A DNA stretch of 64,000 bases from Bacteroidota bacterium. Lineage in GTDB: Bacteria; Bacteroidota; Bacteroidia; JABEUT01. This document shows positions 1 to 12,761 of the stretch, in pieces. Both the position numbers and the translations under genes were made by a program. Under the pieces are notes generated by a model that searched no databases, was not told the DNA's origin, and saw nothing but the letters and a program-made list of their open reading frames with translations. Location: NCBI GenBank assembly GCA_013289165.1, contig JABDAL010000002.1, positions 3,278 through 67,277 of the forward strand, given 5' to 3'. The stretch's first letter is position 1, and every line of letters starts with the position of its first letter.

Positions 1-369
1 AATGAAGGGGCAAAAGACTTTCAACTCGAAAAGATGAAAGACGAGAAACCCCTCTATACCCATGTATTGGAAACAGCCTCCAAGTGGGGAAAGAAAGAGA
101 ATACCATGTTTGTAATAGGCGCTACCAAGGAAGAAGAATTTAAACGTGTCCGCGAAATACTGCCCGAACATTTTCTGCTTGTGCCCGGTGTAGGCTCGCA
201 GGGTGGTGATATGGAAGAGGTGATTAAATTAGGGGCAACGAAAAATGGCAGGCTATTGATTAATGCATCAAGGAGCATATTATATGCCGGCAATGAACAG
301 GACTTTGCCGCCAAAGCAAGGGAGGAAGCATTCAGGCTAAAGCTACAAATGGAAAGTGGGTTCCATTGA
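1..369 (+). CDS. pyrF: Orotidine 5'-phosphate decarboxylase, C-terminal part (gene begins upstream of the window)
   Basis: The 111-aa translation contains the LVPGVGSQGG motif typical of type-2 OMP decarboxylase C-termini. The ORF is open to the window edge. Confidence 0.7.
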   Translation, partial: NEGAKDFQLEKMKDEKPLYTHVLETASKWGKKENTMFVIGATKEEEFKRVREILPEHFLLVPGVGSQGGDMEEVIKLGATKNGRLLINASRSILYAGNEQDFAAKAREEAFRLKLQMESGFH

Positions 370-449
370 CAGTATACTGTTCTTCTTAAAAATCCCGATT
401 TAATCTCCCTTTAATCTTATCCAGTTCCTATTTTGATAAGTTTGCATCC

Positions 450-2081
450 GTGAAAAGGTTATCACGTAAACATCTTTACTTTTTTTCCATTCTCTCCGGG
501 TTCTTATTATGGGCAGGATGGCCCCCAAATGGCTTTCCTTTCCTGCTGTTGGTCGCATTCTGCCCTTTGCTTGTTGTAGAGCATTATCTCTATACCCATC
601 GCATTTCTCAAATAAGTTATGGAAGCTTCTGGACCTATTCCTTTCTTTCCATGCTTATATGGAACGCTTTAACCACCTGGTGGGTATGCAATTCCACCAT
701 TGTGGGTGGATTAATTGCCATTATCTGCAATTCGTTTTTCATGGCGGCAATATTGGTGCTGTTTCACTCTGTAAAAAAGCGCATGGGGGCAAAGATTGGT
801 TATGCCTCCCTTCCTGTTTTCTGGCTTGCTTTTGAATATATTCATCTTAACTGGCAATTAAGCTGGCCCTGGCTTACCTTGGGCTTTGGTTTCTCCAATT
901 ATGTATGTTTTTTGCAATGGTATAAATTTACGGGCCCGCTGGGTGGTTCTTTATGGATATGGCTCTGCAACATTGCCGTATTTGTTTTCATCTGTAAAAA
1001 ATGGTTAAGTACTATATCATTATCTATTAATCGTATTGGTATTCCCTTGGCGTTGATTATTCTGCCAAGCTGGGCATCCTTTCTCATATACTGGTCACAT
1101 CCTTTACCCGACAAGCAAAAGGGAGTCAACGTGGTGGTGGTGCAACCCAATATTGACCCTTACAACGAAAAATTTTCCGGCAATTATGCAGAACAACTAA
1201 CTAAAATGTTTGCGTTGGCAGACACGAAAGTTGACAGCACTACTTCCTACCTTATCTTCCCTGAAACAGCTCTCACTGATTCAGAAATATGGGAAAATAA
1301 ATTCAGTGACAATGCAAGTATCCGCCAGGTGTGGGGATATCTGCACAAACATCCCAACTTAAAACTTATTACGGGAGCCGAAACCTACAAGGCATACCTG
1401 GATGGGGAAAAGCCAAGTGAAAGCGCTCGCAAATTTGATAGCGAAGACGGTTATTATGATGCCTTTAACACAGCCATGCAGATGGATTCTTCAAAAAGAA
1501 TAGAAGTTTATCATAAAAGCAAACTCGTCCCCGGTGTAGAGTTTATGCCATTTTCCAAATTATTAGCCCCATTGGGCAAATTGGCATTCGACTTGGGCGG
1601 AACCTCAGGAACACTGGGAACACAGAAAGAACCCTCCGTTTTTTATTCTTCCTTCTCCAAAACTACTATTGCTCCTGCTGTTTGTTATGAATCTATTTAT
1701 GGGGAATATATAGGACAATATATTAAGAAAGGTGCCCAACTGCTGGTAGTTATTACCAATGATGGCTGGTGGAAAGATACACCCGGCTATAAACAACACC
1801 TGTGTTATGGAGCCATGCTTGCTGCTGAATCGGGAAAAGACCTGGTACAATGCGCCAATACTGGTATTTCGGCAATAATAGATGAAAGGGGAGCAATTTT
1901 ACAAAAAACCAAGTGGTGGGAACCTGCGGTTATTTCCGCCTCACTTCATCCCAATAACACCCGTACATTTTATTCTCTGCATGGAGATTATTTAGGCTTC
2001 TATGCCATTATTTTCAGTGTCTTGATAATACTTTTTGTAAGTATCAAAAAAGCTACCGGCTTTTTTATTTCAAAAGGGTAA
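450..2081 (+). CDS. lnt: Apolipoprotein N-acyltransferase
   Basis: GTG start. A polytopic N-terminal membrane domain is followed by a carbon-nitrogen hydrolase domain ([26 protein letters not shown]). The length of 543 aa is typical of Lnt. Confidence 0.85.
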
Positions 2082-3681
2082 CCGTGCCCGTATAGTGGTG
2101 TATTGTCCCTGCAGGATCAGTTACATTTACCTGGTATATATACAGCCCCTGCTGGCAAACTTGCGAACCATTGCTTATTGCACCATTCCAGCCCTTTGTA
2201 ATATCATTGGTATAATATACTTGCCCCCCCCAACGGTCAAAAATGAACATTTCAAAGTTGGCAAACTCAGTACCTTTTGGAATAAAAACAGTATTAAGTC
2301 CACCTCCGTTCGGGCTAAAGGCATTCGGAATATAGAATGTGTACTGCTCACCTATTCTAATACATTGAGTAGCCGTATCGGCGCAACCATGGGTATCTGA
2401 AACAATAAGGCTTACACAATAAATCCCCGTATCCGAATAGGTATGCGTAGGATTGGAAAGTGAACTGCTAGTATCTGTTTTATCATTAAAATTCCATTCC
2501 CAGTCAATAATTGGATATTTTCCGCTTGATGTGCTGTTAAAAGAAACTGTTGGATAAATAATGTTTACCGGGCTGGGTGTATACGAAAAACTGGCCGTAG
2601 GTAGAGGATATACGGTTATCATATTAGAAGTCTGACGAGTTGATGAACACCCCCCCGAACTTACTACCGACAAGCTTACACTGTATTGTCCCGGCTCCTT
2701 ATAGCAATGATCGGGGTATTGTCCCGTGCCTGTTCCCCCATCGCCAAACGACCAGTCCCACTCAACAATTGGGGCAGCCGGAGTAGTATTGGCTGCAAAA
2801 AACTGGGTACATAGCGGGGCACACGCCGCACTTAGGTTAGATGCGAAAACAACCACCGGCACAGGGGTTACTATTACGCTCACAGTATTCATAGCCGTTC
2901 CACATCCCGTTGTATAGTCTACCGTATAAACAGTTGTCGCCTGAGGAGATACTGATACATATGCTGTAGGCATATTACCCGGTTGCCAAACATAGGTACC
3001 TCCACTGGGTGTTCCTGTTGCCGTTAAATTTACCGTAATTCCCGTACAAATTACTTTCGTTGTGCTCGCGGCAACCGTAGGCAAAGGAGTAACATCCACC
3101 GTAAATGTGGTTGAATTAGTACAATTATTACTGTCTGTACCAACAACTGTGTAAACAGTGGTACTTCCGGGATTTGCCGTTGTTGTAGAACAGGTCGGAC
3201 AGCTTAAACCCACGTTAGGTGACCACACATAAGTTTTAGCCCCCGAAGCAGTAAGGGTAGTGGAATTTCCGGCACAAATATGGTTATTGCCTGTTACTAT
3301 AACCGTTGGTTTAGAGACTGTAATATAATTGGGTTCCGTCATCGTATTTGAACCGGATGAATTAGTGGCAGTAAGTGTAACCGCATAGGTGCCCGGTTTG
3401 TTATAAATAACGGTAGGGTTTTGCTTGGTAGAAGTACTAGGTGTCCCTCCGGCAAAAGTCCAGCTCCAGGAGGTAGGGCTATTCGATGATAAATCGGTGA
3501 AATGTACACTATCGCCGGCACAGATAATTGTACTGCTGGCAGAAAAATTGGCAACAGGGGCAACACCGCCCTTTATGTTATGCTTCTGCAATGGATTGAA
3601 AGAAACCCCACCGGCAGATAAGCAAAAGCAGGTAAGCGCGGCACTAAGAATGATACATGATATAGTACTCCTCTTCTTCAC
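2065..3681 (-). CDS. Secreted PKD-repeat protein with a T9SS type-B (gliding-motility-associated) C-terminal domain
   Basis: Signal peptide, then repeated Ig/PKD-like modules (VxFTDxS...WxF). The C-terminus ([17 protein letters not shown]...[13 protein letters not shown]...GWNG) matches the CHU_C/type-B T9SS sorting domain pattern. Confidence 0.7.
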
Positions 3682-3814
3682 TGCAATACGTAAAATGAAT
3701 GCACAAATATAAGCAAAAAAAGGCTATTTTGGCTAGAAAACATTTCAACTACAGACTGTTTAAAATATTTATGCCGCCTACCCACATTTATCTTATTACA
3801 ATAGACACCTCTTC

Positions 3815-4084
3815 CTAAGCATTTTTATTTTCAATTTTGACTTGATTCATATTCTTTTCAGATTGTGCTGACTTATCTTCCTCTCTATTTATTATTTTTA
3901 TACCTGTCCACCATGCCACAACGGCTGATATTATAAAACACCACAACCAAGCGCGTTTGATCAATTTCTCATGTTTTGGACACTTCTTAAATAGGTGTCT
4001 TTTTATCTGATTTTCAAATATGGGCATTAACGTAGCTATTGATGCTGTTGTTAACGCTATTTCTTTTACATGTAGATCAATCAT
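3815..4084 (-). CDS. Small hypothetical membrane protein in the AT-rich region
   Basis: 89-aa ORF with one hydrophobic helix. There is only ORF evidence, and the surrounding GC content is very low. Confidence 0.25.
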   Translation of the reverse strand: MIDLHVKEIALTTASIATLMPIFENQIKRHLFKKCPKHEKLIKRAWLWCFIISAVVAWWTGIKIINREEDKSAQSEKNMNQVKIENKNA

Positions 4085-4201
4085 TTTTTATATTTTTACT
4101 TTAAACTTTTAGATATAAGATGGATTATCTATTCCTAATCGTGAAAACTCCTATGTAAAATTAAAAAATAATGTTCATTTTTGTATTTAACAATAAATTA
4201 T

Positions 4202-4224
4202 GGTAATTATACTAATCTTTGACG
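4202..4224. repeat. Left copy of a 23-bp perfect inverted repeat (ggtaattatactaatctttgacg). Its partner is at 8755-8777.
   Basis: The reverse complement of 4202-4224 is identical to 8755-8777 over 23 of 23 nt. The AT-rich similarity continues a few bases outward from both copies. Confidence 0.8.
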
Positions 4225-4297
4225 TATCAAAGAAATTAAAGATATTTAAAACGCATCGTAGTTATTATTAGTATATTTAACCTAAAGAATAATTAAT

Positions 4298-4486
4298 ATG
4301 AAGACAATCAAAACCGTTGAAGAATTTCAATTGTGTATCGACGAAGTAAATAAGACAAAGAAAGAAATGAATGTGAAAATTGAAATGACTGATTTTGAAA
4401 CTGAAAAAGTAAGAAAAAAGTTAAAGATGGATGGAGTAGATGTTGTAGTGAAGTCAGAATATGATGTTATAAAACCTTTAGAATAA
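4298..4486 (+). CDS. Hypothetical 62-aa protein
   Basis: A short, charged, K/E-rich ORF followed by a rho-independent terminator. Nothing else supports it. Confidence 0.3.
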   Translation: MKTIKTVEEFQLCIDEVNKTKKEMNVKIEMTDFETEKVRKKLKMDGVDVVVKSEYDVIKPLE

Positions 4487-4600
4487 TGTCAGTTGTACAA
4501 AACAGGAGAATTGCCTCTATTTAAATCAAATGGTGGTTCTATCACCTTGAATATTTCATTTTAAGTATGTAGCTCTGTTTTGCTAAGCCAACTGACTTTT

Positions 4601-4630
4601 ACCCGTAGTTTTCGCTACGGGTTTTTTATT
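4601..4630 (+). terminator. Rho-independent terminator
   Basis: Stem acccgtag/ctacgggt (8 bp) with a 6-nt loop, followed by a ttttttatttg run. Confidence 0.5.
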
Positions 4631-4699
4631 TGCTTACTTGGCGCAAATATACGCTTTATCCCGTCTTTATTGCTTAAAAGTTACGTTTTACCCTATTTG

Positions 4700-5806
4700 T
4701 AAATCCTAGAGTTAAAAAGTCGTTTTAATAGGTAAAAATAGCCCTTTTTGAGGGCTAATGAAAATTATTTTTCATTGATTATCAAAGATTTATAAGCGCT
4801 GTATTGAAAAATTAGCTATTTTTATAAGCGTGTCAGAGTTACTATATAGAAACCAAACATGGAAAACAAGTATAATTTTAAAGGTTTCATTTCGTTTTTG
4901 AAAATTTTTAAAGATGAACAAACATGCCGAGAATTTTTAGAGCACTTAAGATGGGGAGGAAAACCAGTATGTGTGAATTGTGGAAACAGCGAAAAGATAT
5001 ATAGATTGAAAAGTGAAAGAACACTCAAATGTTCTAAATGTGATAGAAATTTTAGAGTAACTAATGGCACTGTATTTCATTCAACTCACATTTCACTTCA
5101 AAATTGGTTTATTGCAATATATCTATTTTCTTCAAATAAAAATGGTCTATCATCTTGCCAATTAGCAAAACACTTGGAGATAACTCAGCCTAATGCCTGG
5201 TATGTACTTGATAGAATAAGAAATGTAATGGATAAAAGTAAACAATTTGATGAAATACTGGAAGGTATTATCGAAGCCGATGAATCGTATATTGGAGGCA
5301 AGAATAAAAATAGACACTGGGATAAAAAATTCAAATATAGTCAAGGTCGTTCTGTTGTAGACAAGAAACCAGTATTCGGAATATTACAAAGAAATGGAAT
5401 GGTGAAGGTGTGGACACTGGATAAATTGGATGGTGTAGAAATGAAAACAATTATAAGGACAAATGTTGTAAAGAAATCTATTGTTTGTACAGATGAATAT
5501 AGAGTATATAGAGGATTAAAGAATAAGAAAAGATTTAAGCATTATGTAATAGATCATAGCAAAAGTCAGCATAAAATAGATGAATTTTATCATACGAATA
5601 ATATTGAAAATTTCTGGAACTTCATAAAAAGAGCAGTGACCGGCACTTATCATAAGGTGGATAAAATATATCTGAATAAATACGCCAAAGAAGCAGCTTA
5701 TAGATACAATACAAGAAAGATGAGCGATGGAATAAGATTTATTGAATTACTTAAAGAATGTGTGCAAACAAAATTGAAATAGTAAATTTACGACTTTCCG
5801 TTATAG
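4700..5806 (+). mobile_element. IS1595-family insertion sequence (boundaries approximate)
   Basis: A single transposase ORF of IS1595 type. The candidate ends share only an aaagtcgt core (about 4716 and 5790-5797). Terminal inverted repeats could not be defined confidently. Confidence 0.35.
4859..5782 (+). CDS. IS1595-family transposase (N-terminal zinc ribbon plus ISXO2-like DDE domain)
   Basis: The N-terminal CxxC...CxxC zinc ribbon (CVNCGNSEKIY...CSKCDRNF) and a 307-aa length are typical of IS1595-family transposases. The protein is basic and K-rich. Confidence 0.8.
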   Translation: MENKYNFKGFISFLKIFKDEQTCREFLEHLRWGGKPVCVNCGNSEKIYRLKSERTLKCSKCDRNFRVTNGTVFHSTHISLQNWFIAIYLFSSNKNGLSSCQLAKHLEITQPNAWYVLDRIRNVMDKSKQFDEILEGIIEADESYIGGKNKNRHWDKKFKYSQGRSVVDKKPVFGILQRNGMVKVWTLDKLDGVEMKTIIRTNVVKKSIVCTDEYRVYRGLKNKKRFKHYVIDHSKSQHKIDEFYHTNNIENFWNFIKRAVTGTYHKVDKIYLNKYAKEAAYRYNTRKMSDGIRFIELLKECVQTKLK

Positions 5807-5879
5807 ACCTCTTGAAGGGAATCGAACCCTTAACCTACTGCTGCGAAACAGTTGCTCTATCAGTTTGAGCTACAAGAGG
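5807..5879 (-). tRNA. tRNA gene (73 nt, CCA not encoded). The anticodon arm is non-canonical. The anticodon may be TCG (Arg), but this is unresolved.
   Basis: On the minus strand it folds into a cloverleaf. The acceptor stem is CCTCTTG/CAAGAGG, the D-arm is GCTC-AAACTGATA-GAGC, and the T-arm is AAGGG-TTCGATT-CCCTT. The anticodon arm ACTGTTTCGCAGCAGT folds only as 5 bp plus a 6-nt loop, or 4 bp plus an 8-nt loop. Confidence 0.75.
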
Positions 5880-6197
5880 AGTGGAATAAAAACCACTCCT
5901 CTTTATAACAGGTTCTATCAAAAAGTTTTTCTCTAAACATCAATCTAATAATTCTTAGTAGGGATTAAGAAAATTAATTACCTTTGTGATTGATAGCGTA
6001 TAGTTATCGCCTTGTAGTTGGAAAACTGAGAATCTTCACAATACGACAAGGATATTACAGTCTACAGCGTGGGCTTGTTCTATCTTTTCGTATAGGTTCT
6101 TCTCAGTACCTCCAACAGAAGACGGGACTATTAGTCCCACGCTGCTGAGAGAAATATAACACTCATTCGGGGCTTGTGGGTACAAAACAATTGTACC

Positions 6198-6857
6198 ATG
6201 AGTAGGTATTTTAAAAAAGGGAAATTTGACTCAATCACAAGAGAAGAAGGTGTTTTTGTGTTGTTTAATGATGAAAACAAGCAAGTCTATTGTATTGGAA
6301 TTATCAAGAATGAATTTAATAAGCGCAAATTACGAGGGAAAATTTCTGGGAAAAGCAAAAATGATAAATGGTCTGATGGATATTGGAAAGCTTTAAAAGT
6401 AAAAAATATAAAAGATGTAGAAAAGGCATTAAATTCAATATTGAAGAGAATACGAAATGGAACAAATGAAAAACTAACTATTCTTTTGTTTTTTCTATTA
6501 TTTGCAAATTTGGTTGTCGGTCAAATAAACGATAAAGTTGTTAAAACAAATTTTTTTGGTGTAGTATCAAATAATGGAAATGTTGAACAAACTTCAGTTG
6601 AAGAAGTAAATATCTTCCATTTGATTTATGCTAATGAAAAATTAAAGATAGTCAAATGTTATTTTTATGATGGTTCAACAACGTCATACGATGACATGAC
6701 ATATGAAAAAACCGATAATAATGGTTCTGTGTGGTATGGTTGTACTGATGAGGATACCAAAGTAAATAGGTTATTTATCATTATGCATAATGGTAATGTT
6801 TTAATGATATTCACTGGTTCTGAGTATTACGTGTTTTCTAAAATAATTACAAAGTAG
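6198..6857 (+). CDS. Hypothetical protein with an N-terminal GIY-YIG-like nuclease motif, a central hydrophobic segment and a C-terminal domain
   Basis: GVFVLFNDENKQVYCIG fits the GIY-(10-11 aa)-YIG spacing, with downstream R/K residues. The hydrophobic LTILLFFLLFANLVVGQ resembles a transmembrane helix or signal peptide. The track ORF starts at 6174, but the ATG at 6198 (MSRYF) is the more likely start. Confidence 0.35.
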   Translation: MSRYFKKGKFDSITREEGVFVLFNDENKQVYCIGIIKNEFNKRKLRGKISGKSKNDKWSDGYWKALKVKNIKDVEKALNSILKRIRNGTNEKLTILLFFLLFANLVVGQINDKVVKTNFFGVVSNNGNVEQTSVEEVNIFHLIYANEKLKIVKCYFYDGSTTSYDDMTYEKTDNNGSVWYGCTDEDTKVNRLFIIMHNGNVLMIFTGSEYYVFSKIITK

Positions 6858-6894
6858 AATAATTGGAGTTATTGCATATATTATATACAATAAC

Positions 6895-7548
6895 ATGTTT
6901 ATACTTATATTTGTACTATTATTAATATTGATAATGGACACCACAGGACTTATAAATTTCTTTAAGGAAAAGTATCGATCTTATATTGCCGGATTAATAC
7001 TTCTAATAGCTATTATTGGTTCTATATATGAGATTTTCTTTAAACCTAAGGAAACTACAATGTTTAGTATTACAAGTAATCAGTCTACAATAGATACCCC
7101 TCATAAAGCAGTTGCATTAGGAAACGATAATGTTACTGTTACTGGAAATGGCAATCATATTGTTGGAGGTAGCGGGAATACAGTAGGAGTTAATGGAGAT
7201 GTAAATACTGTTCCACATATTAATGACACAATAAAAAGGAAAATTTTAAGTGTGCTTGTCAAAATTCAAGAAACTGATAATTTAAAATTACCTACTATAT
7301 TCTTGAAAAATGAACCCGGTTGTGATGAAGGATATTTAAAAGAAGTTGACTCATTTCTCCATAAAGGATATACTGTTCAAGAGCATTTTAATGATGGTAG
7401 CAATTATAATTTACCTTTGAATTCGATAGATATCGAGTCACATAAAGAGAGTAATATCATTGTTGTATTAATATCCAGGACTAATCCAGATTTTAAAACA
7501 AACCCTGTCCATTATTATATGAGTCAACATGAAGTTACTATAAAGTAA
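6895..7548 (+). CDS. Hypothetical membrane protein (2 N-terminal TM helices) with a GN-rich repeat region
   Basis: Two hydrophobic helices at the N-terminus, then GNDNVTVTGNGNHIVGGSGNTVGVNGDVNTV repeats. Codon usage is very AT-rich and no known motif was recognised. Confidence 0.4.
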   Translation: MFILIFVLLLILIMDTTGLINFFKEKYRSYIAGLILLIAIIGSIYEIFFKPKETTMFSITSNQSTIDTPHKAVALGNDNVTVTGNGNHIVGGSGNTVGVNGDVNTVPHINDTIKRKILSVLVKIQETDNLKLPTIFLKNEPGCDEGYLKEVDSFLHKGYTVQEHFNDGSNYNLPLNSIDIESHKESNIIVVLISRTNPDFKTNPVHYYMSQHEVTIK

Positions 7549-7641
7549 AAAATTTCAGAATTAGAAATAATAGTGGTTGTTTGTCTTTCGAAGTAAATAA
7601 TTGATATCAGAAGTTATTGTATGTAAAAACCTGCATACAAT

Positions 7642-7935
7642 ATGAGAAAATTAATACGATTTATTTTGCGTACATTTGGGGTAAAATATACAAAAATGAG
7701 CAAGATAAAAGATTCCGGCGATTTCACTACTGTTACCATAGATAAATCAACCTATAAAATAGAGTCCATAGAGGCAGTTAGACCAAAAGATTTGACTGGT
7801 AAAGGAGAGCATTATGGGATTGAAATACTATTTCATAGCGGTAAAGATGAGATAGGTTATCTCAAACCAGAAGAAAGAGATGAAGATCTTAGAAAATTAG
7901 GCAACCTGATGAAAGGTAAATTAAACGTTAATTAG
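7642..7935 (+). CDS. Hypothetical 97-aa protein
   Basis: ORF only. A 7-bp inverted repeat (ttgtatg...catacaa) sits immediately upstream of the ATG. Confidence 0.3.
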   Translation: MRKLIRFILRTFGVKYTKMSKIKDSGDFTTVTIDKSTYKIESIEAVRPKDLTGKGEHYGIEILFHSGKDEIGYLKPEERDEDLRKLGNLMKGKLNVN

Positions 7936-8154
7936 CTTGATTAGTAAAAGACGTTAATACCTTTTATATAAGTAGAAATGTAAATAATAAAAAGGTGGTT
8001 AACAGTAAACCTAGAAAGCCTACAAAACCAATACCATATTCCGGTACTCCTCTGATACCAATTCAATAAGGTTGAAGTTATTCCATGTAATTTGTAATTA
8101 ATACATGCAAAATGAATTGGCAAAAACTTTTTACTTTCAATTTAAGAAAGAAAG

Positions 8155-8529
8155 TTAAAGGCTCTGGAACAGAGCAGGATTTGAGGCTTCAAATACATTT
8201 AAAGCGTCTATCTCCCGAAATAAAGATAATCCTTCCTGAGCAACATTTAAACTCAAAGGCACTTTCACACCAGCTATCTTCATATTTGTACGATTCATTT
8301 GTTGATCATGGTTTAAAATGCTTAGAAACTGTTCCTGCCATCGTTGATAAATATAACAAAGAGCACGATACTCATTTTGTTCTTCATGTAAATATTGTTG
8401 AATTGTGACACTTTCTAATGCTGTATCAGAAACAGTAAGCAAAATGGTCAATAGTTCTTTTGATAAAAGTGTTTTAGTTTTCTTATCAAAATAAGAAACT
8501 ACTTTTTGAGCAACGTCGTAGTTAGTCAT
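8155..8529 (-). CDS. Hypothetical 124-aa protein
   Basis: ORF only. It overlaps the opposite-strand ORF 8112-8408, and which of the two is real is uncertain. Confidence 0.25.
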   Translation of the reverse strand: MTNYDVAQKVVSYFDKKTKTLLSKELLTILLTVSDTALESVTIQQYLHEEQNEYRALCYIYQRWQEQFLSILNHDQQMNRTNMKIAGVKVPLSLNVAQEGLSLFREIDALNVFEASNPALFQSL

Positions 8530-8754
8530 AGTAGTGTATTAGGAATATAAAGATAGTAAGAATTTTAAATAGGCAAATTAAGCCTCTAGCCCAATACTGG
8601 TCGGATAAATCAAATGCTAAAAACAATTTTAAAGCTAAATATGAAAATAGTAGATTCATAACACTTAGAACTTAGCTAATAAACTTTAGGCGATTTAATA
8701 ATAGAGAAAACAACTAATATGAAATTAGCTGATAATTAGGCATTAAAATTTTAA

Positions 8755-8777
8755 CGTCAAAGATTAGTATAATTACC
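8755..8777. repeat. Right copy of the 23-bp perfect inverted repeat (cgtcaaagattagtataattacc)
   Basis: Exact reverse complement of 4202-4224. It ends 9 bp before the ATG at 8787. Confidence 0.8.
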
Positions 8778-8786
8778 TAAATTATT

Positions 8787-10070
8787 ATGACAGCAGTTGT
8801 AGGTATATTAAACAGAAAAGCGGTAGCTATTGCAGCAGATAGTGCCGTTTCAATAGGCGGAAAAATTTATAATAATGCACTAAAAATATTTACACTATCC
8901 AAATATTATCCTATTGGGATTATGATTTATCAAAGCGCTAACTTCATGAATACTCCTTGGGAAACCATCATAAAAATGTTTAGACAGAAATTAGATGACA
9001 AGGAATTGGATACTGTTGAAGCATACCAGATAGAATTCATAAAATATTTGAAAGAAATGAATTTTTTTTCTAGTGAGCAAGATCAAAAAACTTATCTGGA
9101 AGTATTAATCTATCAACTATTAAATGTTATTAATAAAGGGGTAATTGGCAAGATGTTTCCTAAAGATTGGGATGCTAATGATAAAGCTATATTTCTTGCA
9201 CATATTGAAAAACATTTAGATGACAACTATTTTGTACATCTTAATACTTATGTTACATGTGATGATTTTACAAACTATTCGATAGATGAGTACTTACAAT
9301 ATTGTGATAGTATAATAAAATCTGTATATGAACAATACTATAATGGTGTAACTATTACAGACAATATAAAGAATAAGCTAAACAAAATGTTCTATCTTTT
9401 ACATAAAGGAAAGGAGTCTTTTTCTCCATACAGCGGACTTATCTTTGTTGGATTTGGTGAAAAGGAAATATATCCTGCCTTAGTTCCAATAATTGTATCG
9501 TTTGCCTTTGATAAAAAATTAAAATACTATGTTTGGGAACAAAGAAAAACGAATATTACTAATGATTATTTTATGCGTAGTAGTATAACTCCATTTGCGG
9601 ATACAGATGCTATGCAAACCATTTTAACAGGTATTGAACCGAAATTAGAAAAAACATACCTCGATAATTTCAAACGGTTTTTTGAAAAGTACAATGATGA
9701 TATTATTAATGTACTTGGGGCAGCAGGGACTAATGTTGCTACAAAAATAAAATCATTAGATATTTCTACATTAACTCAACAATATGAAAACAGTATGACG
9801 GCAGATAAACAAGAAAATTATATTGCCCCACTACTTGATGCTGTTGCAAATTTATCGAAAGAAGATTTAGCAGAATTGGCGGAAAGCCTTATATATTTGA
9901 CTTATTTACAAAAAAGGATTACCTTTGCAGAAGAAAATGTTGGCGGTTCAGTTGATGTTGCTATAATTTCAAAAGGAGATGGATTTGTTTGGATTAAAAG
10001 GAAACACTATTTTAAACCAGAGCTAAATCATAATTTTTTAGAAAACTATCTATATAAGCCTAAGAAATGA
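8787..10070 (+). CDS. Ntn-hydrolase (proteasome beta/HslV-like) family protein with a large insertion and an N-terminal Thr nucleophile
   Basis: Begins MTAVVGILNRKAVAIAADSAVSIGGKIYNNALK. After Met removal this gives Thr1, with Asp17 and Lys32/33 spaced as in proteasome beta subunits. The C-terminus ENVGGSVDVAIISKGDGFVW resembles the proteasome-beta SGG...v.v.itkdG strand. At 427 aa it is far longer than HslV, Anbu or BPH. Confidence 0.45.
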   Translation: MTAVVGILNRKAVAIAADSAVSIGGKIYNNALKIFTLSKYYPIGIMIYQSANFMNTPWETIIKMFRQKLDDKELDTVEAYQIEFIKYLKEMNFFSSEQDQKTYLEVLIYQLLNVINKGVIGKMFPKDWDANDKAIFLAHIEKHLDDNYFVHLNTYVTCDDFTNYSIDEYLQYCDSIIKSVYEQYYNGVTITDNIKNKLNKMFYLLHKGKESFSPYSGLIFVGFGEKEIYPALVPIIVSFAFDKKLKYYVWEQRKTNITNDYFMRSSITPFADTDAMQTILTGIEPKLEKTYLDNFKRFFEKYNDDIINVLGAAGTNVATKIKSLDISTLTQQYENSMTADKQENYIAPLLDAVANLSKEDLAELAESLIYLTYLQKRITFAEENVGGSVDVAIISKGDGFVWIKRKHYFKPELNHNFLENYLYKPKK

Positions 10071-10261
10071 AAACACAAATTAAAAAAATAGCAAATGAAG
10101 CATCCTCCATATCGAGGCTTTCATTAGATTTTTGTTCTGAATCCTATAATATTCTTGATAAAAAGGAGAAAAGCCCAGAAGAAAGAGCAGAAATAATATC
10201 AGATGCTTTAATTCAAAACATACGCAATCAGTTCAGTGTAATGGAAATTGCTAAGAAATAA
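10067..10261 (+). CDS. Small 64-aa protein translationally coupled to the Ntn-hydrolase gene
   Basis: Its ATG overlaps the upstream stop codon (AAATGA). The protein is acidic and helical-looking with no recognisable motif. Confidence 0.35.
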   Translation: MKTQIKKIANEASSISRLSLDFCSESYNILDKKEKSPEERAEIISDALIQNIRNQFSVMEIAKK

Positions 10262-10278
10262 ACTGATTCTTCCTCTTT

Positions 10279-11421
10279 TCAGCAGGCAACTTTCCCGTTA
10301 TAGTAGTAATTTTTACATTTCCCGAAGTTTGACCGACCATTTTCCTGTAAGAACTGCCCATAGGCAATCTCCAGTTCCCGATATTTCCCCAGGCCTTTGT
10401 TGTCATTGACAACCCTTTCGCAAATGGTATCTGCCAAATCAAATTGTATTTTGGTATCCAGTTCCATTTTTCGATTTACAAACTGCTTGATTTGGTGGAT
10501 ATATGCGAACCAGTTTGCATAATTGCCAATATATTTTGTTGAAATACCCCTGTGGTACTCATTTACAAAGCTCTTGAAATTGTGTATATAGGCATTGGCA
10601 CTTTGCACGTGCACAGTTTTATCCATCCAATCCCTATGGTAAGTTCTGGCTTTAAAGGCTTTATAAGAGATGTTGTTATCCTCAAAAAAGGCTCTGTAGG
10701 ATGTGTGCTTATCGCAACGGACCTCTATGTCTTTAAACTTTCCAGGTATGTTAAAATACTTGTCCAAATGAACTTTTCGAACTCTGCCAATATTACTTAT
10801 ATGAAAATCCAGTTTTTTGGAATTTCGTCCGTATGTAACCAGTACCTTCGTATTATAAGGTGATTCTCCAACGGCCACTTTCCGTCTCCATTTCCTGTAC
10901 CCGTTTTTATTTGTGATGCCCATGTCCTGCCTGCCTTTTCTACTGAGCATCAAATTGCAATCGTCAAATTCTATTACCTCATTCTCAAATGTTATATTTT
11001 GATTGCTGGTTAAAGCTGAAAGTAGTTTATGCCTCCAGTTAAAGGCCGTTTGTTCGGTTATGCCTATTCGTTTTTTTACTTCTTTTAGGGATGAGAAATT
11101 TAAGCTCATGAAGTCTTCTACAAACAGATTCCATTTGTTAAGCTTCTGAATATTGCTTAAAACCGTGTTTGTTCGGTAAGTGAAACTTTTCTTGCAGGTA
11201 CGGCAGATATATCTATGATGGCCGTTCCTGATGCCATTTTTAACAATTTTACCTGAGCCACAATGCCTGCAAGCAGTAACATCGGCATGCTCGTCAAATA
11301 TTGAATAACTGCTTCTTAAATACTCGATTAAATCTTGCTTTTCCTTGACGGATAGGGTGTTAACCCTCTTTTTTAAACTCTGAATGTCCACTTTTTTACT
11401 CTTTTTCGTTTCTTTCATCAA
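10279..11421 (-). CDS. IS1595-family (ISXO2-like) transposase with an N-terminal zinc ribbon
   Basis: CRHCGSGKIVKNGIRNGHHRYICRTCKKSF zinc ribbon followed by a DDE-like domain. It is unrelated in sequence to the 4859-5782 transposase. Confidence 0.7.
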   Translation of the reverse strand: MMKETKKSKKVDIQSLKKRVNTLSVKEKQDLIEYLRSSYSIFDEHADVTACRHCGSGKIVKNGIRNGHHRYICRTCKKSFTYRTNTVLSNIQKLNKWNLFVEDFMSLNFSSLKEVKKRIGITEQTAFNWRHKLLSALTSNQNITFENEVIEFDDCNLMLSRKGRQDMGITNKNGYRKWRRKVAVGESPYNTKVLVTYGRNSKKLDFHISNIGRVRKVHLDKYFNIPGKFKDIEVRCDKHTSYRAFFEDNNISYKAFKARTYHRDWMDKTVHVQSANAYIHNFKSFVNEYHRGISTKYIGNYANWFAYIHQIKQFVNRKMELDTKIQFDLADTICERVVNDNKGLGKYRELEIAYGQFLQENGRSNFGKCKNYYYNGKVAC

Positions 11422-11593
11422 ATCCGCTTTCTTTTATAGACGCAAATATAATAAAAATACTTTACAACTACCTCGATATCTTCAGATTATATCAAAATAT
11501 TTATCCCTCAGCTATTTATACCACCCATCAACCAATGTCTAGAGTAGAGCCAAAAATTACATTAAGTGACTGGTTTTATGAGCCTAATATCTT

Positions 11594-11640
11594 TACGTCA
11601 CATTGCCCGTTTCGTGAAAAACCGTGACATAACCGCTTTT
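11594..11640. repeat. Terminal-repeat-like block containing ccgtgacataaccg
   Basis: tacgtcacattgcccgtttcgtgaaaaaccgtgacataaccgc is about 90% identical to the reverse complement of 48236-48280. Confidence 0.6.
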
Positions 11641-11717
11641 CAATTTATTTGGATTTTGTTAATTTTTTCGTAAAAAATCCTGCCAGAATATACCATTTGG
11701 TACAGGGCAGATTTGTG

Positions 11718-12761
11718 CTACTTACTTTCCATTGGAAGGGACCACCTGGCAATATTGGAAGCAATTTTGCCCCCTGCAATCATAAATTGCCCTCCTACAT
11801 AAAGTTCGTTTTTATATACGGCTATAGAGCTCACAGTTCCGGTATTTATCTTGCAATCGCCGGCCCAGTATATCACTCCACCCATACAATTCCAGGAACG
11901 GGAACTGTTTTCGTAATTCGTAATATGAAATACGTTGTCAATTCTCGGGACAGAGGTGAAATCACCCCCTACAAACAAGCCTGTATTATAAACTGCCATA
12001 GCATAAGCTCCCCCATTAAAGGGCCCCACCGGCGACCATCCATGAGTATCCCACTTCACCAGGTAATTGAATTCTCCACAGGCGTACAGTTCATCAAAAT
12101 AATTTACAAAGCACTTTACCCAGCCACTTTTGTATTGCTGCCCGGTATTGGTCACATCTTCCCATAGTTTACCTGTCCACCTTTCCACCGAGGAAAACTG
12201 CCCCCCGGCATAAAGCATTTCCCTGTACACAATAAGAGCCCATACATTATCGGGTAAACCCCTCCCCACCTTTGACCATCCCGATGTATCGCTATATCGT
12301 ACTATATGCTTTGCAGTAAGCGTATCGGCTCGTGTAAACGATCCGCCTATATACAATTGGCCTTTCATTACATACAATGCATTGATTCTTCCATTCGTAG
12401 AACCGATATATTTCCATAGTGTATCATTCCAGCACAACAGGTTGTATGATTTACCTGCACCAACTCCAATTTCTGTTCCGGCATAAAGCTTACCATTAAA
12501 CTCCGCCATAGTGGTAATATTTCCCTGGAGGTTGGAATCGGGAACAGTCCACGACTTACCATCCCAGCATGCTGTATGAGTAGCTCTTTTTCCCACACTA
12601 TCCATGCCGCCCATATAAAGCTTATCATGAAAAACATACATGGGGGTAAAATTCCCTTTGGCTCCCAACCCTACAGTGGACCATATTTGAGACGAGCAGT
12701 AATACGGTGAGAGGAAACCGCATAACAGTGCCAGTATTAGTACTTTATCTTTTAACATGTA
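11718..12761 (-). CDS. Secreted Kelch-like beta-propeller repeat protein
   Basis: Signal peptide (MLKDKVLILALLCGFLS) followed by at least 6 repeats of the form G..Y.GG.F. A start at 12761 (ATG, MLKDK) removes the overlap with the next gene. The ORF track extends to 12857. Confidence 0.55.
   Translation of the reverse strand, partial: YMLKDKVLILALLCGFLSPYYCSSQIWSTVGLGAKGNFTPMYVFHDKLYMGGMDSVGKRATHTACWDGKSWTVPDSNLQGNITTMAEFNGKLYAGTEIGVGAGKSYNLLCWNDTLWKYIGSTNGRINALYVMKGQLYIGGSFTRADTLTAKHIVRYSDTSGWSKVGRGLPDNVWALIVYREMLYAGGQFSSVERWTGKLWEDVTNTGQQYKSGWVKCFVNYFDELYACGEFNYLVKWDTHGWSPVGPFNGGAYAMAVYNTGLFVGGDFTSVPRIDNVFHITNYENSSRSWNCMGGVIYWAGDCKINTGTVSSIAVYKNELYVGGQFMIAGGKIASNIARWSLPMESK

Follow-up and report, generated by a model that had tools for sequence, protein, structure and literature searches.

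A proteasome-like hydrolase and a conserved micro-protein partner form a two-gene cassette carried by mobile elements in several bacterial phyla

We describe here a gene cassette that pairs a proteasome-like enzyme with a micro-protein. It was found in a stretch of 64,000 nucleotides (nt) of a Bacteroidota bacterium (contig JABDAL010000002.1, positions 3,278 to 67,277 of the forward strand), which we call the window and to which all coordinates refer unless another record is named. The first gene (8787..10070, plus strand) encodes a protein of 427 amino acids (aa), predicted to be a Thr1 N-terminal-nucleophile (Ntn) hydrolase of the proteasome-beta fold. It belongs to PHROG 5990 and is of the PMI type ('Proteasome homolog with Multiple Insertions'), probably PMI-4. 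The second gene (10067..10261, plus strand), recognized from the list of open reading frames (ORFs) and the alignment of homologues, encodes a 64-aa micro-protein with a conserved amphipathic helix, SPEERAEIISDALIQNIRNQF. This ORF is a genuine, conserved partner of the hydrolase, and the two genes form a tight operon. As a self-contained cassette, the pair travels among temperate phages, phage satellites, plasmids and genomic islands, and it is found in Bacteroidota, Firmicutes and Proteobacteria. The hydrolase family as such has already been catalogued; what is new is the conserved micro-protein partner and the pattern of carriage as mobile-element cargo.

The original prediction, made from the window alone, held that the 64-aa ORF starts within the stop codon of the hydrolase gene, and it does so through an ATGA overlap. 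Among 80 loci drawn from species-representative genomes, a small ORF of 52 to 86 aa on the same strand follows nearly every homologue, at a distance of -4 to about +20 nt. These ORFs can be aligned with each other and share the motif I..(Q)GMS..EI(A/S)E(I/V)(V/I)S(D/E)(K/R)L(I/M)..V(K/R)(K/E)QF. A hidden Markov model (HMM) of the partner, run against 16,037 ORFs taken from 2.3 Mb of fetched loci, gave 116 matches, all located directly downstream of the big gene, and later iterations added only two marginal matches to unrelated ORFs of about 420 aa. When we counted ATG-initiated ORFs of 40 to 95 aa that start between -25 and +150 nt of the stop codon, they were present at 145 of 150 homologue loci (about 97%), compared to 94 of 601 (16%) for control ORFs of at least 300 aa. 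The proposed partnership extends to the homologues. The partner itself is a short, fast-evolving and largely helical protein.

The sequence of the partner varies between hosts. The downstream ORFs in E. coli are unannotated, one of 49 aa (MSLKQAYERTQPKSINDFF...NFFTKL), which accompanies the hydrolase WP_000123148.1, and another of 34 aa, and they belong to a different class from the Bacteroidota partner. On an Enterococcus plasmid both genes are annotated by the Prokaryotic Genome Annotation Pipeline (PGAP), and the 56-aa partner there retains a helix of the form MS..D..FDVMVEQQKK; the gene pair is likewise annotated in Providencia and Porphyromonas phages. A third class, in which an amphipathic helix comes after a G[FY]F.[LIV]P motif, was seen at six IMG/VR loci (L133, L134, L135, L137, L143 and L150 in our locus numbering). 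Every partner class has aromatic motifs of the FF type, which could act in docking or mark a cleavage site. Comparison of the partner with Pfam, PDB, PHROG and PADLOC gave no credible match. The possibility that it is a Pup-like tag, with the C-terminal GGQ or GGE of Pup, was rejected, as hhalign to a manually entered Pup sequence gave a probability of 0.4% and the C termini of the partners are not conserved. Clustering of all neighbours in the 80 loci revealed no third conserved gene, the best other cluster being present at 8 of 81 loci. A search among the neighbours for an AAA+ or other unfoldase partner found AAA domains in only 2 of 148, none of them conserved.

The N terminus of the 427-aa protein is MTAVVGILNRKAVAIAADSAVSIGGKIYNNALKIF. 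With Thr counted as residue 1, Asp is residue 17 and Lys is residue 32, as the original prediction had noted in pointing to the catalytic triad of proteasome beta subunits. In Met numbering these are Thr2 (codon 8790..8792), the predicted N-terminal nucleophile once Met has been removed, Asp18 (8838..8840), the counterpart of proteasome Asp/Glu17, and Lys33 (8883..8885), the counterpart of proteasome Lys33. In an alignment of 134 diverse homologues, 30 to 48% identical to the query, 131 have Thr at residue 2 and the other 3 have Ser, and Asp18 and Lys33 are invariant, so that the triad is kept across the family. The register of Asp18 and Lys33 agrees with that of Pfam PF00227 (residues 2 to 41) and TIGR03634 (residues 2 to 43). 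The complete set of invariant residues is N9, D18, S19, A20, K33, G222, G224, P230, E366, V385, D390, G399, W402 and K406. In 120 of 122 distinct homologues the start codon lies directly 5' of the codon for the Thr or Ser nucleophile, and therefore the family has no propeptide. Methionine aminopeptidase removes Met in front of a residue such as Thr and would expose the nucleophile at residue 2. From the sequences, then, Thr2 would become available by ordinary Met removal, with no need for autoprocessing.

The family is nearly invisible to searches that use sequence only, because the matches in Pfam and NCBIfam are below threshold and phmmer against the PDB gave no match. PF00227 scored 16.3 bits, compared to a gathering cutoff of 22.4 (E = 0.008), and covered only residues 2 to 41, and the archaeal beta model of NCBIfam also matched at the N terminus (E = 0.02). 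The family is large all the same. A word-indexed search returned more than 3700 matches, nearly all of them "hypothetical proteins" of 415 to 435 aa from Bacteroidota, and when all of 1.84 billion cluster representatives were scanned with HMMER, 5632 clusters (at 50% identity) passed E ≤ 1e-3 and 3019 passed E ≤ 1e-30. PHROG 5990 is matched over the full length (residues 1 to 421 to profile positions 1 to 427 of 427, E = 1.3e-92), and the same group is matched by the phage homologues of Providencia, Porphyromonas and the Streptococcus satellites. At 7 of the 80 genome loci (L019, L021, L040, L042, L048, L052 and L053) the big ORF is broken by stop codons or frameshifts; these copies may be pseudogenes or result from assembly errors in metagenome-assembled genomes.

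The fold was assessed with AlphaFold. A first model, based on 30 close homologues, was poor, with a predicted local distance difference test (pLDDT) of 70 and termini below 50, and was superseded by a model based on the 134 diverse sequences, with a pLDDT of 94.1 and a predicted template modelling score (pTM) of 0.91. According to this model, the hydrolase adopts the fold of proteasome beta (T1 peptidase, Ntn), an alpha-beta-beta-alpha sandwich with the S1-S10/H1-H4 topology, as had been proposed. The core consists of strands at residues 4 to 48, H1 (58 to 69), H2 (77 to 90), strands at 216 to 270, H3 (273 to 281), H4 (358 to 379), strands at 389 to 404 and H5 (415 to 422). The original prediction described two proteasome-like halves separated by about 250 aa, and here it does not hold, since core strands and helices also occupy the middle of the model. 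Given this order of elements, the extra length represents two separate helical insertions rather than one long spacer. Insertion 1 (about aa 97 to 210; 9075..9416) follows H2 and contains four helices (97 to 207), and insertion 2 (about aa 285 to 357; 9639..9857) is a long helical hairpin (285 to 354) between H3 and H4. Mean column conservation, expressed as the majority fraction, is 0.24 in insertion 1 and 0.28 in insertion 2, compared to 0.71 to 0.73 in the terminal core segments. A weak profile match between insertion 1 (aa 84 to 162; 9036-9272) and helical repeats at the N terminus of Cullin-3 (E = 0.004) was judged to reflect probably helical-bundle composition, and a BFVD fold search gave no informative full-length match.

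The predicted likeness of the C terminus to proteasome beta was supported in two ways. The C-terminal core strands, NVGGSVDVAIISKGDGFVWI (9936..9995), correspond to the SGG-strand region of proteasome beta: hhalign aligned them to ASGGMIDVAVITRKDGYVQL, residues 168 to 187 of Thermoplasma proteasome beta (E = 3e-5; template sequence entered manually), and a PDB profile search gave a weak match of residues 387 to 404 to residues 176 to 193 of 1pma_B (E = 0.015). Four residues of this region, V385, D390, G399 and W402, are among the invariant ones. In real proteasomes, the surfaces where the insertions are located line the pore and make the ring-ring contacts (PMC8665760), and the insertions of PMI proteins have been argued to hinder ring and double-ring assembly (PMC8665760). 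The size of the protein had been claimed to exceed that of any described homologue. This claim has to be withdrawn, as PMI-type homologues with insertions at the same two sites were catalogued in 2021 (PMC8665760).

Elsewhere, too, the hydrolase gene is found in mobile contexts. By tblastn it is present in 13 phage records, including a Porphyromonas phage, Streptococcus satellite prophages, Streptococcus prophages, and Stenotrophomonas and Providencia phages, and it is also present in 10 plasmid records and at least 270 IMG/VR contigs. In the Streptococcus satellite prophages it lies at the very end of the element; in the Stenotrophomonas and Providencia phages it adjoins the lysis cassette or sits between Q/methylase and holin genes; and in one Porphyromonas phage it is within the morphogenesis region. 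The viral neighbours are mainly CI-type repressors or regulators, endolysins or amidases, integrases, methyltransferases, anti-repressors and an Abi protein, and ImmA-like metalloproteases are found as well. These neighbours belong to the ends and the switch regions of temperate phages, which is where their accessory genes are kept. The position in the Porphyromonas phage raised the possibility of a prohead protease or structural role, which we rejected, as the gene is found at varying positions and commonly outside phages, and canonical head maturation proteases are among the neighbours. In the Streptococcus satellite Javan198, a gene for a helix-turn-helix (HTH) regulator of 98 aa and one for a PHROG 2523 protein of 121 aa precede the hydrolase gene (L167:8195-8846). 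That record ends at the hydrolase stop codon, and the region of a downstream partner lies outside it.

In E. coli, the hydrolase is present in only 22 of the 5426 complete genomes. Two E. coli prophage copies are at moron sites (L173:7957-9413 and L174:7357-9311), each followed by the 49-aa or 34-aa ORF. In an enterotoxigenic E. coli (ETEC) prophage the gene has antiterminator Q on one side and the methylase, tRNA and lysis genes on the other, and is encoded on the opposite strand; the copy in a Rac-like prophage is directly downstream of, and co-oriented with, a gene for a CI/RacR-like HTH repressor. Lambda has rexAB directly downstream of cI, and the Rac prophage has sieB near racR. Because the ETEC copy is on the strand opposite to the late operon and the Rac-like copy is co-oriented with the repressor gene, expression in the lysogen is suggested. 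The chromosomal neighbourhoods in Bacteroidota are variable, and a few of 148 neighbours match AbiE, AbiL, type III methyltransferase/ResIII, PD-T4-6-like kinases or mad6.

Prophage moron positions (a site like that of rexAB and sieB and the region from Q to the lysis genes), together with patchy distribution and variable neighbourhoods, lead us to favour a role in defence or addiction. This idea, raised in the original prediction, is plausible and is better backed by context than before. As we would put it, the host or lysogen may express the cassette as a conflict module made up of a protease effector and a small regulator, which would act in superinfection exclusion, abortive infection or addiction; we infer this tentatively and give it a little less than an even chance. 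The Thr1 peptidase would be the effector of the module. It would work outside a proteasome-like double ring, as a specific peptidase whose insertions bind the target or the partner. The co-translated micro-protein would be the regulator, either an inhibitor or pseudo-substrate that restrains a propeptide-less enzyme, or a specificity adaptor. In a stronger form, the hydrolase and the micro-protein would represent an unrecognized class of immunity or exclusion systems present in several phyla, in which the partner restrains or targets a non-ring protease until infection or loss of the partner; this form we regard as possible but doubtful.

Several observations weigh against this reading. The role assigned to the partner is conjecture. 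In 49 of 164 loci the small downstream ORF has no detectable homology to the Bacteroidota partner; these are distant loci, mostly from IMG/VR, where the big protein is 36% identical or less and the small ORFs fall into other sequence classes. Neither the hydrolase nor the partner matched any of the PADLOC-DB 2.0 models, even at E ≤ 1, and our literature search found no paper that links a proteasome-like protein to phage defence. Many of the chromosomal neighbours are housekeeping genes, such as those for ribosomal proteins, ATP synthase, EF-G and PGK, and genes that are either housekeeping or unrelated to defence make up most of the 148 neighbours. Further points concern the active site, where the triad is intact and some second-shell residues are, judging from the alignments, unlike those of true proteasomes. 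Proteasome Ser129 is replaced by Phe or Tyr (G222-[F/Y]-G224 instead of G-S-G), an invariant Val385 is found at the position of Ser169 (in an alignment extended by hand, with a manually entered template), and the residue after strand S4 (position 49, the probable position of the oxyanion-hole Gly47) is Asn in 63 homologues, Gly in 47 and Ser in 19. In the same hand-extended alignment, the Asp166 position is Glu382, which is Glu in 75 of 134 homologues, and the neighbouring Glu383 is Glu in 130 of 134. As several residues that support catalysis are replaced, the chemistry may differ from that of true proteasomes.

Three other explanations have to be considered, each of which we find unlikely. 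The first is that the enzyme carries out sequence-specific processing or ligation in the manner of connectase, with the micro-protein as the substrate and a short motif upstream of its conserved helix as the site of cleavage, cyclization or ligation. Connectase is an archaeal proteasome homologue that works as a monomer and on a single, specific partner protein (PMC8665760; PMC7980362). The fixed adjacency of the two genes would fit an enzyme and its substrate, and short motifs do precede the helix ('DVLSAF' and 'QGMS', and FF or G[FY]F in the other classes). However, these motifs differ between the partner classes, and the hydrolase is built differently from connectase, having H1 and H2 and lacking an insertion between S3 and S4. 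There is no conserved downstream gene, such as one for an exporter or a target, that would use the processed peptide, and the preference for accessory sites in prophages and satellites would be left unexplained. For these reasons we give this possibility a small chance.

The second explanation is a pure toxin-antitoxin or addiction cassette that stabilizes the element carrying it, in which the protease is the toxin, the micro-protein is a labile antitoxin and there is no anti-phage role. The translationally coupled two-gene layout with one small, fast-evolving partner is what such a cassette could look like, and carriage on plasmids, satellites and prophages agrees with it. So do the 7 interrupted copies among 80 loci and the insertion sequence (IS) that cuts the copy in the window from its upstream region, which fit a costly gene. 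The partner, however, has no recognizable DNA-binding domain and matches no known antitoxin family, and it is encoded downstream of the enzyme and coupled to it, an order that does not favour an excess of antitoxin. Moreover, many copies are present in ordinary chromosomal contexts with nothing to stabilize. A cassette with this function alone therefore seems improbable to us.

The third explanation is that the phage or mobile element itself profits from the function, in counter-defence, host takeover or the control of lysis and lysogeny, for instance through cleavage of a repressor or of an immune protein of the host. The family forms a PHROG and is often seen in viral contigs, its neighbours there include repressors, anti-repressors and ImmA-like metalloproteases, and one Porphyromonas phage has the gene in the morphogenesis region. 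On the other hand, hundreds of copies in bacterial genomes have no phage genes nearby, the orientations in the ETEC and Rac-like prophages suggest expression in the lysogen, and the position in phage genomes is not fixed, unlike that of a core life cycle gene. This explanation, too, is not a likely one. A housekeeping role in general protein quality control, as for HslV, Anbu or BPH, is suggested by the shared fold and catalytic triad but is very improbable because of the patchy and mobile distribution (22 of 5426 E. coli genomes; a low-GC, IS-flanked island in the window) and the absence of an unfoldase, there being no conserved AAA+ or other partner besides the micro-protein, and the insertions moreover occupy ring-forming surfaces in the model (PMC8665760).

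The mobile context that had been claimed for the window itself is confirmed, as the cassette lies in a low-GC island with IS1595-family elements on both sides and has homologues on phages, satellites and plasmids. The composition profile delimits a stretch of low GC content (3700..10261; 0.28 to 0.32, compared to about 0.42 in the flanks) that contains the cassette and an inserted transposon. This IS1595-family transposon of 4576 bp (4202..8777) has terminal inverted repeats at 4202-4225 and 8754-8777, previously described as 23 bp and in fact a perfect repeat of 24 bp, for which the expected number of chance matches is 0. The transposon is bordered on both sides by an 8-bp direct repeat, TAAATTAT (4194-4201 and 8778-8785), and IS1595-family elements make target duplications of 8 bp. 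The transposon encodes a transposase of 307 aa (4859..5782, plus strand; an identical gene in the public contig L001 has the domains Zn_ribbon_IS1595 and DDE_Tnp_IS1595) and four passenger ORFs, 6174-6857, 6895-7548 and 7642-7935 on the plus strand and 8155-8529 on the minus strand. Only 1 nt separates the insertion point from the hydrolase ATG downstream of it, and the operon is thereby severed from its original upstream region, now at about 3700-4201. In this genome, the operon may be transcriptionally silenced by the insertion or may be driven from the IS.

Downstream, a second IS1595-family transposase of 380 aa (10279..11421, minus strand), with an IS1/IS1595-type zinc ribbon, matches NCBIfam NF033547 (E = 2.8e-28). 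It converges on the cassette as had been reported, the stop codons of the partner and the transposase being 17 nt apart. No clear terminal inverted repeats of this second IS were found within 10200-11900. The public contig L001 (Logan SRR8422341) is 100% identical to window positions 4356-11623. Its left part (1-5569) consists of window positions 1-3386 in inverted orientation plus 2.2 kb of other sequence, where the window has positions 1-4355, and this difference may be a structural polymorphism or a misassembly at the IS.

One very large family, most likely from the 2021 catalogue, now has an almost obligatory micro-protein partner, and this turns it into a testable two-gene hypothesis. It raises the possibility that proteasome-fold enzymes can be specific effectors outside rings in the conflicts between microbes and mobile elements, and if the immunity or exclusion reading is true, this would be the first enzyme of the proteasome family used in conflict between mobile elements. 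The copies in E. coli prophages make the function of the family experimentally approachable. Such an enzyme might also serve as a specific protease or ligase tool, as connectase has.

How does the cassette compare to known systems? With the morons RexAB of lambda and SieB of Rac it shares the same positions in E. coli prophages and the character of a small, self-contained and patchily distributed cassette, whereas there is no relationship in sequence or fold. HslV, Anbu and BPH have the same fold and triad, and in Anbu and BPH the nucleophile is exposed without autoprocessing, as in the hydrolase, but these proteins are of 175 to 240 aa, form rings and have no linked micro-protein gene. In HslVU, an HslV of about 175 aa works with HslU, whereas the 427-aa hydrolase has no conserved AAA+ gene or larger partner gene next to it. 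The Anbu operon contains genes for an ATP-grasp protein, a transglutaminase and an Alpha-E protein; we rejected an identity with Anbu, as neither the size of about 240 aa nor this operon is found here. Compared to the 20S proteasome beta subunits of archaea, eukaryotes and actinobacteria, the hydrolase has two insertions that add about 225 residues, lacks a propeptide, has neither an alpha subunit gene nor an AAA+ gene nearby, shows the changes from Ser129 to Phe/Tyr and from Ser169 to Val, scores below the PF00227 threshold and is carried by mobile elements. PHROG 5990 is matched along its whole length and is itself only a sequence cluster, with no annotation of fold, active site, partner or function.

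Connectase has no H1 and H2 and carries a two-helix insertion between S3 and S4 (PMC8665760), the opposite of the hydrolase in both respects, and it is found in methanogens, whereas the hydrolase is found in bacteria and phages. The closest known relatives are in the catalogue of Fuchs, Alva and Lupas (2021), which describes 22 new proteasome-like families of unknown function (PMC8665760). PMI proteins have no propeptide and keep Thr1, Asp17 and Lys33 (PMC8665760). PMI-4, with HDY66466.1 as its representative, is the largest of the new families and is present in Proteobacteria, Firmicutes, Actinobacteria, Bacteroidetes, phages and others (PMC8665760). The hydrolase resembles PMI-4 (and PMI-3) in its Thr1/Asp17/Lys33 core, the lack of a propeptide, the long insertion after H1/H2 and the second insertion between H3 and H4, and its family is also spread over Bacteroidetes, Firmicutes, Proteobacteria and phages. 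As the insertion sites, the missing propeptide, the triad and the distribution all match, the 427-aa protein is most likely a member of PMI-4, an assignment made by the published description of architecture and distribution and not by sequence. Our literature search for the hydrolase family, PHROG 5990 and homologue accessions found nothing later than this catalogue, whose authors saw no genomic context suggestive of function (PMC8665760). The difference from PMI-4 as described lies in that context: a micro-protein gene is located directly downstream of the hydrolase gene in about 97% of loci, and the cassette occupies accessory sites of mobile elements.

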